DNA from: a virus
Direction: 5' to 3' (one strand)
DNA length: 64,000 nucleotides
IMG/VR virus record: IMGVR_UViG_3300005096_000137
Location: 1 to 64,000 of that record
In this document: positions 52,778 to 61,529 of the stretch, in pieces
How positions within the stretch are numbered: position 1 is the stretch's first letter
How the letters are laid out: every line of letters starts with the position of its first letter
Notes under the pieces: generated by a model
What the model saw: only the letters and a program-made list of their open reading frames with translations
The model's database searches: none
Told to the model about the DNA's origin: nothing
Made by a program: the position numbers and the translations under genes

Positions 52778-52860
52778 GAGAGGGAGGTAGATGTTGGCTT
52801 TGCTACACCTGTCCGTTAGACAGGGGCTTCGGTCTGTGGGTTCGATTCCCACCCCTTTCG
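52778..52860 (+). tRNA. Ser-type tRNA body with GTT anticodon
   Basis: Long variable arm, G73, D arm like flanking tRNA-Ser; loop CC-GTT-AG. Confidence 0.75.
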
Positions 52861-52865
52861 CTTTG

Positions 52866-52956: not shown

Positions 52957-53309
52957 GGGCAGGTATCTTGGTGAGGGGAGATGATCACCCTGGGGGTTCG
53001 ATACCCTCTACTTGTTCAGTGAGTGGGTTATGGACGTGACAGGCCTGACCGCCTGGGAGGTAAGATTCCTCGCCCACTTGCATGGAGGACCCTACGAGGT
53101 GGGGACGTACATGGGTAAAAGTCCATTATGGAAGAACTACCCGCGTGCGTCGAGGTTCGTAACCTTACTCCTCCGCTTTAGTTTATCAACTGAACCGGCA
53201 CCGGATGGTGTTCCTTCGTGACTCACCCACGATAGGTTGGTAAGCGTTAATGGGCGGTCCCCGCGACAAGTCTATACGACAAACCGTCTGGGGTACGACT
53301 CCCCGCCCT
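52957..53309 (+). ncRNA. String of tRNA-like mini RNAs (52957-53018, 53021-53080, 53084-53175, 53183-53243, 53252-53309)
   Basis: Each has a closing stem; four have a 3' T-arm-like hairpin. Confidence 0.55.
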
Positions 53310-56794: not shown

Positions 56795-56878
56795 TACCGT
56801 CACGGTGTAACCGGCATCACACTAGATAGTACCTATAGGGCTATCTGGAGGAATGGGTTCGGGTCCCGAGGGCGGTAC
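56795..56878 (+). tRNA. tRNA-like RNA with extended anticodon arm
   Basis: TACCGTC/GGCGGTA acceptor; CTAGATAG/CTATCTGG stem; no canonical loop. Confidence 0.5.
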
Positions 56879-56880
56879 TT

Positions 56881-56957
56881 TGCCGTAGTGGTGTAAATGG
56901 CACAGCATACCAGGGCGTCCACCCTGGAGGCATGGGTTCGATTCCTGGGTGCGGCAC
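56881..56957 (+). tRNA. tRNA-like RNA, 8-nt anticodon loop (GCGTCCAC)
   Basis: TGCCGTA/TGCGGCA acceptor, GGTTCGATTCC. Confidence 0.6.
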
Positions 56958-57082: not shown

Positions 57083-57188
57083 TGCAGCGGTAGTGGAAAA
57101 GTGATCCCGGAAGGCCTTCTGGGGTCCCATAGGTAACATTCCAGGCCTTTTAGCCTGGCGACAGGGGTTCGAGTCCCCTACGCTGCAC
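57083..57188 (+). tRNA. tRNA-Lys-like RNA (TTT, 8-nt loop) with D-loop hairpin insertion
   Basis: TGCAGCG/CGCTGCA acceptor; tandem paralog of previous. Confidence 0.65.
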
Positions 57189-58034: not shown

Positions 58035-58214
58035 ATGAGAGACTGTCAATTTACAATCAAAGGTTGGTTCATGATTGTTCTGACGTTTGCCATCGGGTTT
58101 ATGTTCGGGCGGTATGAACACATGATAGCCGAGGTGTTGGAATGCCTGTTATCAATACTCTGGCATCATGTTTACCAGTATACGGATGGTGTGGCCTATG
58201 GGATGCCCGTATGA

Positions 58215-58306
58215 GGGTGGTGTTCCCAACGTTGGACTGTAAATCCAGCGTCCTTTAATCATGTTGGGAAGCATTGGGACAGGGGGTGCGATTCCCTCAC
58301 TGCCCA
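58215..58306 (+). tRNA. tRNA-Tyr(GTA)-like RNA lacking a D arm
   Basis: GGGTGGT/ACTGCCC acceptor; TTGGA-CT-GTA-AA-TCCAG; large variable arm. Confidence 0.7.
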
Positions 58307-58327: not shown

Positions 58328-58678
58328 ATGGCGAAGTCAAAGTCAAAGTCAAAGTCAGAGTCAGAGTCGAAGTCGAAGTCGAAGTCGAAGTCGAAGTCAG
58401 CGGACGAGGCAAAGTCGAAGTTTCAAGTCATAGTGCAGCAGCGTGGTGTTCGCGTCCAAGTCTCAGAAGTTGAGGCGACCACTGAAGAGGAAGCTCTGGA
58501 GCTGGTATTGGCCCGCAACGTTGCAGTCCAACTGGTCTCAGATGTATTCGAGCCAACGGATGGGCATGAGACGGAGGTTGAAGAATGCCAAGATTCAGAC
58601 TCGAACGAGCCGAAACCGGAATCCGACACACCACCCACGAAGTCACCGCGCAAACCAAAGAAGAAGCCGAAGACCTAA
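58328..58678 (+). CDS. V.A..EEA family protein with (KS)n N-terminus
   Basis: GGAG RBS; AAGTC(A/G) hexamer repeats 58334-58399. Confidence 0.65.
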   Translation: MAKSKSKSKSESESKSKSKSKSKSADEAKSKFQVIVQQRGVRVQVSEVEATTEEEALELVLARNVAVQLVSDVFEPTDGHETEVEECQDSDSNEPKPESDTPPTKSPRKPKKKPKT

Positions 58679-59419: not shown

Positions 59420-59494
59420 CAGGTCGGTAAGCTTAAATTGGATAAAGCACTTGGTAGCTCCAAGGTTACGGAGGTTCGAGTCCTCCCCACCTGA
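59420..59494 (+). tRNA. tRNA-like RNA, 5-nt anticodon loop (TAGCT)
   Basis: Good D and T arms; bulged acceptor. Confidence 0.6.
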
Positions 59495-59499
59495 CTTAT

Positions 59500-59575
59500 T
59501 GTGCAGCAGCTTAAACCTGGTTCAAGCGACCACCTATCTGGTGGCTGAGTGGGGGTTCAAATCCACCCTGCACGT
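59500..59575 (+). tRNA. tRNA-like RNA with ATC anticodon
   Basis: Loop CT-ATC-TG (A34, U37). Confidence 0.6.
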
Positions 59576-60726: not shown

Positions 60727-60798
60727 GCGCGAGAGGCAACATGGTGTTGCGGCGGGCTTTCAATCCCGTTCTGGTGGGTTCGATCCCCATCTCGCGGT
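60727..60798 (+). tRNA. tRNA with 8-nt loop CTTTCAAT (Glu TTC or TCA register)
   Basis: GCGGG/CCCGT stem; 5-6 bp D stem; GTGGG-TTCGATC-CCCAT. Confidence 0.7.
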
Positions 60799-61454: not shown

Positions 61455-61527
61455 TCCTAGGTAGCTCAACTGGAAGAGCGGGTGGCTGTTAACCACCAGG
61501 TTGCAAGTTCGATCCTTGCTCTAGGAG
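61455..61527 (+). tRNA. tRNA-Asn(GTT)
   Basis: Canonical cloverleaf. Confidence 0.93.
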
Positions 61528-61529
61528 CT

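Follow-up and report, generated by a model that had tools for sequence, protein, structure and literature searches.

A phage tRNA-Tyr-like gene with a predicted pseudoknotted core in place of the D hairpin

The tRNA-Tyr-like gene analyzed here is located at positions 58215-58306 (plus strand, 92 nt) of the window, the 64,000-nt stretch that makes up the first 64 kb of a 148,427-bp IMG/VR record rated as complete. The record is that of a tailed phage, whose genes include those for a 1,288-aa tape-measure protein, a primase and a helicase. When 3 kb around the gene was searched by megablast for close relatives among 50,697 deposited phages, no match was found. The gene exactly occupies an intergenic gap and begins one base past the stop codon at 58212-58214. 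The features of the locus are as follows, where D5 and D3 denote the two strands of a long-range helix, V5 and V3 those of the variable stem, L2 and L3 the segments between them, and "members" refers to the gene family described below.

58035-58214: small upstream ORF, its stop codon abutting the start of the tRNA gene
58215-58222, plus strand: 5' strand of the acceptor stem, 8 nt with G1 first, pairing with 58298-58305
58223-58224, plus strand: connector of two U (positions 9-10), T in 75 and 79 of 90 members
58225-58230, plus strand: D5, the 5' half of the long-range helix standing in for the D stem, contiguous with the anticodon stem
58231-58249, plus strand: anticodon arm, 6-bp stem and 7-nt loop, GTA at 58239-58241
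58250-58253, plus strand: V5, 5' strand of the variable stem, pairing with 58277-58280
58254-58262, plus strand: L2, A/U-rich linker from V5 to D3, 7-15 nt and A/U-rich in all members
58263-58268, plus strand: D3, 3' strand of the long-range helix, inside the variable-arm loop, a perfect complement of D5
58269-58271, plus strand: N-A-G motif (here A-A-G; N-G-G in most members), the proposed equivalent of G18-G19
58272-58276, plus strand: remaining five bases of L3, an insertion relative to the family model
58277-58280, plus strand: V3, 3' strand of the variable stem, the complement of V5
58282-58297, plus strand: T arm, 4-bp stem (58283-58286 with 58294-58297) and 7-nt loop (58287-58293)
58298-58305 and 58306, plus strand: 3' strand of the acceptor stem and discriminator A, followed by C-T-T; CCA is not encoded
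58329: likely ATG of the downstream gene, 22 nt past the end of the tRNA gene

The downstream gene starts with about 12 tandem hexamer repeats (58329-58400), which encode alternating Lys/Glu-Ser. ORFs from the mechanical listing overlap 58215-58306 on both strands, and a scan for promoters and terminators revealed nothing that exceeded the shuffled background.

An earlier note, made from the sequence alone, had described the locus as a D-armless tRNA-Tyr with a pseudoknot, and all of the parts that it named were found in place when the sequence was checked. These are the Tyr anticodon arm with its 7-nt loop and GTA, the 4-bp GTCC/GGAC stem formed by 58250-58253 with 58277-58280, and an 8-nt segment (58223-58230) that is 100% complementary to 58263-58270. 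The gap between the acceptor stem and the anticodon arm measures only 8 nt and contains no local hairpin, so that a D stem-loop is indeed absent; the acceptor stem, however, has 8 bp rather than 7, as its G8-C pair covaries in homologues. Of the proposed 8-bp long-range pairing, the inner six pairs (58225-58230 with 58263-58268) are conserved, whereas the two outer U-A pairs are specific to this copy: the two U of the connector can lengthen the helix to 8 bp in the window copy, but this extension is not conserved. The anticodon loop carries U33, GUA and A37, the T loop carries T54, G55 (58288), C56 and A58, and L3 is 2-5 nt longer than in the other members.

The gene was not called by ARAGORN at 58215-58306, nor was it matched by RF00005 at the Rfam gathering threshold (curated threshold 29 bits). 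The best match within the Rfam clan was tRNA-Sec (RF01852), with 22 bits and an E value of 0.03. Assignment to tRNA-Sec was rejected given that this score lies below the threshold of 47 bits, that the anticodon is GUA instead of UCA, and that the 6-bp D hairpin is absent. An intron, a split gene and a permutation of the whole gene were likewise rejected, as the two halves of the acceptor occur in the usual order and none of the helices hints at a place for splicing.

Within the whole 148-kb genome, 12 tRNAs were called by ARAGORN, none of them Tyr. Neither TyrRS (PF00579) nor a CCA-adding enzyme (PF01743) was found in the phage genome, and the tRNA would therefore have to depend on the host enzymes. 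None of the 13 tRNA genes of the window (39137-61669) encodes CCA, and in all 13 the discriminator is immediately followed by C and then by a T-rich sequence (mostly C-T-T). The trailer of the knotted gene (discriminator, C, T-rich sequence, no CCA) thus has the form of those of the other 12 tRNA genes of the phage.

To gather homologues, IMG/VR and the GTDB genomes were each scanned twice with sequence patterns, by which at least 92 distinct family members were collected from uncultured phages and from the tRNA arrays of bacterial assemblies, mostly Planctomycetota. The first IMG/VR pattern, in which D5 and the anticodon loop were fixed, returned eight true homologues amid chance matches; the second, in which only the anticodon loop, the T loop and the unusually long spacing were fixed, returned at least 64 distinct genes with the same layout. 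Since the search patterns prescribed the anticodon loop and most of the T loop, the invariance of these loops is no evidence. The genes are 83-94 nt in length, and their D5 and D3 strands vary widely yet always match each other. A covariance model (R1; 86 model positions) was built from 87 members with the window copy excluded. With this model, the window copy scored 70.6 bits (E value 3.4e-20) across all 86 model positions, a value near the bottom of the range of the training members (69.5-97 bits), and the next-best match in the window, an ordinary tRNA-Ser, scored 17.9 bits. One copy was found in the genome by the R1 search.

Of the 120 pattern matches listed for prokaryote assemblies, 22 were family members, many of them from Planctomycetota, including a Kuenenia MAG, and these copies sit in arrays in which as many as 35 tRNA genes are packed into 8 kb. 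Such arrays reportedly correspond to the tRNA array units in the survey by Tran et al. The possibility that the gene is the cell's own tRNA-Tyr in Planctomycetota was rejected because it lies inside dense arrays of 30-35 tRNAs that are typical of mobile array units; in one assembly, a normal Thr-Tyr-Gly-Thr cluster was found 4.5 kb from the array. As judged from its genomic setting, the knotted gene belongs to phages and mobile arrays and is not the housekeeping tRNA-Tyr of the cell. When three members were compared by blastn, which has low sensitivity for queries of ∼90 nt, with the deposited cultured phages, the fold was not found. Two promising matches in Aeromonas phages 25 and P19, each in an unannotated gap of a tRNA cluster, were considered and rejected, as each is a cloverleaf Tyr gene with an odd D arm (R1, 23-28 bits). 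In Aeromonas phage 25 (NC_008208; L650:1466-1592), this unannotated tRNA-Tyr(GTA) encodes CCA, lies between tRNA-Asn and tRNA-Gly and is overlapped by a 'hypothetical protein' on the opposite strand; ARAGORN misses it and calls its P19 homologue.

To the earlier note's proposal that the D helix is rebuilt by pairing with the loop of the variable arm, covariation is directly relevant. The window copy and 64 homologues (65 members) were aligned by MAFFT without structural information, and the pairs of each helix were counted as follows; the covariation counts are inflated by relatedness among the sequences.

Acceptor stem: 8 pairs, 8 with compensatory change, 98.8% of cells paired
D5:D3: 6 pairs, 6 with compensatory change, 99.2% of cells paired
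Anticodon stem: 6 pairs, 6 with compensatory change, 99.5% of cells paired
V5:V3: 3 pairs, 2 with compensatory change, 92% of cells paired
T stem: 4 pairs, 2 with compensatory change, 86% of cells paired

The eighth acceptor pair covaries (GC in 48 members, UA in 8 and AU in 7), and the outer pair of the T stem is unpaired in 32 of the 65 members. The observed pairing scores were reached in none of 500 shuffles, and pairing fell to 40-55% when the 3' partners were slid by 1-3 columns. Moreover, all five helices were recovered, with the same pairs ranked at the top, when APC-corrected mutual information was calculated for 90 members in anchor-based columns. The highest mutual information in the molecule was that of D5:D3, and the acceptor pairs were also among the top. 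Since the variable stem shifts its position in alignments, it was tested by permutation instead. An exact complement of a member's own first three V5 bases was found between the post-D3 motif and the T stem in 87 of 92 members, compared with 34 on average and at most 49 when the partners were reassigned.

Given that D3 lies between V5 and V3, the D5:D3 and V5:V3 helices cross, and a pseudoknot results. Both crossing helices covary across the homologues, in agreement with the rebuilt D helix that had been proposed, and where the earlier note had named a lack of covariation as the finding that would speak against it, the opposite was observed: all 6 core pairs showed double compensatory changes. 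On this comparative sequence evidence, the two helices, the pseudoknot topology and the membership of the window copy in the family can be regarded as established.

A further dependence was found between the middle base of the post-D3 motif and position 55 of the T loop, which covary with no exception in 92 members: GG occurs with U55 in 85, AG with G55 in 6 and AG with C55 in 1, the T-loop variants having been sought by separate pattern searches. The members with G55, all of which carry N-A-G, are the window copy, L215, L229, L447/L503 and L524, and the sole C55 member, L406, also carries N-A-G. The mutual information between the two columns equals the full entropy of both. When these two columns were omitted and the near-identical L447 and L503 were counted once, the nearest relative of each variant lineage was a G/U55 member, which indicates that the switch at position 55 arose several times. 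These results point to an elbow contact in which the post-D3 bases would do the job of G18/G19 and touch positions 55 and 56 of the T loop. The G55 of the window copy is then most simply read as a compensated state, not as damage.

In the cloverleaf, nucleotides 22-25 form the D-stem strand that is continuous with the anticodon stem, and their partner, strand 10-13, heads for the elbow and leads into the D loop bearing G18-G19. According to the connectivity of the knotted RNA and to established tRNA structure, D5 would stand in place of the canonical 22-25 and D3 in place of 10-13, and the N-G-G (here N-A-G) after D3 would dock on T-loop positions 55-56 to form the elbow. The D arm would in effect be opened at its loop and re-closed at its other end via the variable arm. 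The acceptor strand would enter at the top of the helix via the two U, not down the helix groove, and a helix of 6 bp, compared with 3-4 bp, may compensate for the short connector to the GG.

We consider it likely that the gene gives rise to a functional tRNA-Tyr(GUA) of the phage, the core of which is a pseudoknot and not a cloverleaf. All of 90 members carry A73, and 87 of the 90 carry G1, features that the search patterns did not require; most members also encode CCA. The 12-bp acceptor/T branch (8+4) has the length that is read by EF-Tu (Mukai et al. 2017, PMC5389517). With the 8+4-bp branch, A73, G1-C72, GUA and the variable stem all kept, the host machinery could use the RNA, from RNase P, the CCA-adding enzyme and TyrRS to EF-Tu and the ribosome. 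The genomic context is consistent with this role. Ordinary tRNA genes lie beside the knotted gene at 82 of 91 family loci, and 42 of the 46 loci with at least 10 tRNAs have no tRNA-Tyr called by ARAGORN. Across the 91 loci, every other isotype was called in 31-49 and Tyr in 6, while none of the 91 knotted genes was called. Going by these gene inventories, the knotted genes fill the otherwise empty Tyr slot of the tRNA arrays, and in the present phage, which has no other tRNA-Tyr, the RNA would supply Tyr decoding. That it accepts tyrosine and decodes UAY we infer from GUA, A73, G1-C72 and the filling of this slot.

Alternatively, the RNA may fold as described and act as a non-decoding decoy or sponge, aimed at a tRNA-Tyr-cleaving defence nuclease, an RNA-repair or Ro60-type system, or a tRNA-sensing regulator. 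This is improbable in our view, yet it deserves consideration, given that the phage carries many aberrant tRNA-like units, some of them probably non-decoding, and that tRNA-Tyr nucleases cutting in the variable arm exist and are neutralised by phage tRNA-Tyr genes (PMC13096335, PMC11555353). However, a decoy need not keep the 12-bp acceptor/T branch, A73, G1-C72 and an encoded CCA, as the family does, and the gene occupies the otherwise empty Tyr slot in near-complete tRNA sets. A sister gene with a GCA anticodon (see below) has, in addition, switched its discriminator to U, as would be expected of a charged tRNA.

It is very unlikely that the window copy alone has lost the family fold, either to a nested fold or as a decaying pseudogene. 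RNAfold assigns its minimum (-34.6 kcal/mol) to a nested alternative in which 58224-58228 pairs with 58275-58279 and 58261-58274 forms a small hairpin, as compared with -30.7 kcal/mol for the family fold restricted to its nested helices; this alternative draws on a second, partial 6-nt complement at 58274-58279. The variable stem contributes about -3.9 kcal/mol more, however, which brings the family fold level with the alternative, and none of the other members has the second complement or the hairpin. Decay could be suspected from the long L3, the G55 and an R1 score at the bottom of the family range; nevertheless, all five family helices are intact, the long-range one with six (up to eight) perfect pairs, G55 is matched by an A in the post-D3 motif, a base that six further members also carry there, and the gene is the only Tyr decoder of the genome. 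Chance complementarity in a degenerate tRNA remnant or a coding sequence, for which an unremarkable RNAfold z-score (-1.42) and the mechanical ORFs on both strands might be cited, is already refuted by the compensatory changes found in every helix across 92 distinct homologues, and it also conflicts with an E value of 3e-20 against the window-free model and with the exact fit of the gene between the stop codon at 58212-58214 and the likely start at 58329.

The working pseudoknotted tRNA-Tyr, which we favor, was compared with known systems. Full-text literature searches found no description of such a pseudoknotted tRNA lacking the D hairpin, and by its sequence features it is a new structural tRNA variant, widespread in uncultured phages and tRNA arrays. 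In identity its closest counterpart is the class II tRNA-Tyr of bacteria, in branch geometry the (8/4) tRNAs and allo-tRNAs, in the absence of a D hairpin the mitochondrial D-armless tRNAs, and in the use of a pseudoknot the viral tRNA-like structures (TLS) and tmRNA. With canonical class II tRNA-Tyr(GUA) (RF00005), it shares GUA in a 7-nt loop, A73, G1-C72, the variable-region stem, the T-loop consensus and a place in phage tRNA clusters. Its 5' connector and C-rich strand resemble the start of the D stem of bacterial tRNA-Tyr, as in E. coli tyrT. In contrast to the cloverleaf, the strand that follows the acceptor has its partner 3' of the anticodon arm, the helices cross, the branch is 8/4 instead of 7/5, and the GG that contacts the T loop follows the 3' strand of the helix, inside the variable loop.

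The (8/4) tRNAs and allo-tRNAs have the same 8-bp acceptor stem and 4-bp T stem, 12-bp branch and long variable region, and they also occur in phage tRNA clusters and are weakly matched by tRNA-Sec models. Previous work has shown that they fold as cloverleaves, retain a standard D arm and belong to the Ser, His, Cys or Sec identities; that study reports no Tyr species of the knotted kind, and the word pseudoknot is absent from it (Mukai et al. 2017, PMC5389517). The knotted RNA differs from them by the absent D hairpin, the GUA anticodon and A73. Mitochondrial tRNAs that lack the D arm, such as mammalian mt-tRNA-Ser(AGY) and those of nematodes, work in translation; they are truncated, with a short unpaired replacement loop and with elbow contacts lost or reduced, and the review that describes them mentions neither phages nor pseudoknots (PMC7609411). 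Unlike these, the knotted tRNA is longer than normal (83-94 nt), its helix is rebuilt at long range with covariation, its elbow contact appears to be kept, and its setting is that of bacteria and phages. TYMV-type 3' TLS and tmRNA are likewise tRNA-shaped, use pseudoknots and are handled by tRNA enzymes. The pseudoknot of the plant-virus TLS, however, builds the acceptor stem at the end of a genomic RNA, and tmRNA has no anticodon arm, whereas the knotted gene apparently yields a free decoding tRNA with the knot in its core.

A link to phage defence may be considered. The PtuAB nucleases of Septu and retron-Eco7 cut tRNA-Tyr in the stem of the variable arm and thereby stop phages (PMC13096335, PMC11555353), and the tRNA-Tyr genes of T5 and T6 counter the PtuAB of retron-Eco7 and Septu (PMC11555353, PMC13096335). 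These counter-defence tRNAs are cloverleaves that act by sequence differences or dosage (PMC11555353, PMC13096335). The knotted gene is phage-borne like them, and the variable arm, the site of nuclease cutting, is the very part that is rebuilt in its fold. The knot could be an anti-defence design, a tRNA-Tyr that PtuAB-like nucleases would not cleave, its variable arm being tied up with the core, and that TyrRS, EF-Tu and the ribosome would still accept. We regard this as speculative, somewhat doubtful at present; if true, it would explain why phages and mobile arrays carry the knotted gene in place of an ordinary one, and the link to tRNA-Tyr-targeting defences described since 2023 is testable.

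To our knowledge, the cloverleaf is treated as universal outside organelles. If the proposed role is correct, a second, non-cloverleaf tRNA architecture would be used on the ribosome in bacteria and phages; a decoding tRNA with a pseudoknotted core would represent a second solution to the L-shape, with the elbow contact preserved. It would bear on the true requirements of RNase P, the CCA-adding enzyme, the modification enzymes, TyrRS, EF-Tu and the ribosome, and the coupling between the post-D3 motif and position 55 offers a ready mutational test. The family also marks an annotation blind spot, as phage and array tRNA sets that seem to be without Tyr would have a Tyr gene after all, and the fold may provide a natural scaffold for tRNA engineering, possibly orthogonal or nuclease-resistant.

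Several related genes were observed. An array in the Kuenenia MAG contains, at L289:1057-1142 (minus strand), a gene on the knotted scaffold with the anticodon GCA (Cys) and discriminator U, which scored 77 bits with R1. It has the 8-bp acceptor stem, D5:D3, T-G-G and V5:V3, and the Tyr version is present in the same array. U73 is a CysRS determinant, and the gene looks like an identity switch on the knotted scaffold; with the Cys anticodon and U73 found together in this array, the knotted fold may be a transferable scaffold. No recurrent knotted Cys version was found in viral contigs among the 119 pattern matches listed. Three further genes, at L524:5048-5132, L180:727-826 and L319:1610-1700 (all minus strand), have the D5:D3 layout with scores of ∼50 bits; the anticodon loop contains UCU in one of them, is enlarged by a 16-nt insert in another, and combines GTA with C33 in the remaining one.

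Knotted Tyr genes at L109:3445-3530 and L126:1430-1513 (both minus strand) carry C1-G72 in place of G1-C72 and do not encode CCA; C1-G72 is the typical first pair of tRNA-Tyr in archaea and eukaryotes. Next to the knotted Tyr gene, two contigs carry a compact GTA tRNA gene (66-72 nt) in which the D arm is minimal or absent (L185:6092-6157 and L145:5355-5426, both plus strand), so that two unusual Tyr designs coexist in some phages. About ten viral contigs (L214, L216, L217, L219, L220, L223-L225, L227 and L228) share an element with a T loop that has G55, the 3' strand of an acceptor stem and a gene-encoded CCA, with no obvious anticodon arm where the pattern matched; judging from these matches, this recurrent element may be another irregular tRNA-like family.

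Other irregular units were found in the window itself. The unit at 52780-52861, which lies between two tRNA-Ser genes, has a class II Ser-like body with GTT at the anticodon and C33; it was called Asn by ARAGORN and received no Rfam call, and a normal tRNA-Asn is located at 61455-61528. A 68-nt tRNA-like unit missed by ARAGORN, at 60729-60796, matched the tRNA-Sec model with 33.5 bits, below the threshold; its D stem measures 6 bp, and both UUC and UCA occur in its 8-nt anticodon loop. Four tRNA-like units (56872-56956, 57133-57187, 59421-59493 and 59503-59573) have good T arms and acceptor stems together with irregular anticodon loops or D regions. With RF00005 (threshold 29 bits), scores of 24.4 bits at 56882-56956 and 27.7 bits at 59421-59493 were obtained. 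Within the same tRNA region, a DUF3800-IX RNA (RF02968) was detected at 53181-53249 with 45.6 bits, above the threshold of 36.8 bits.
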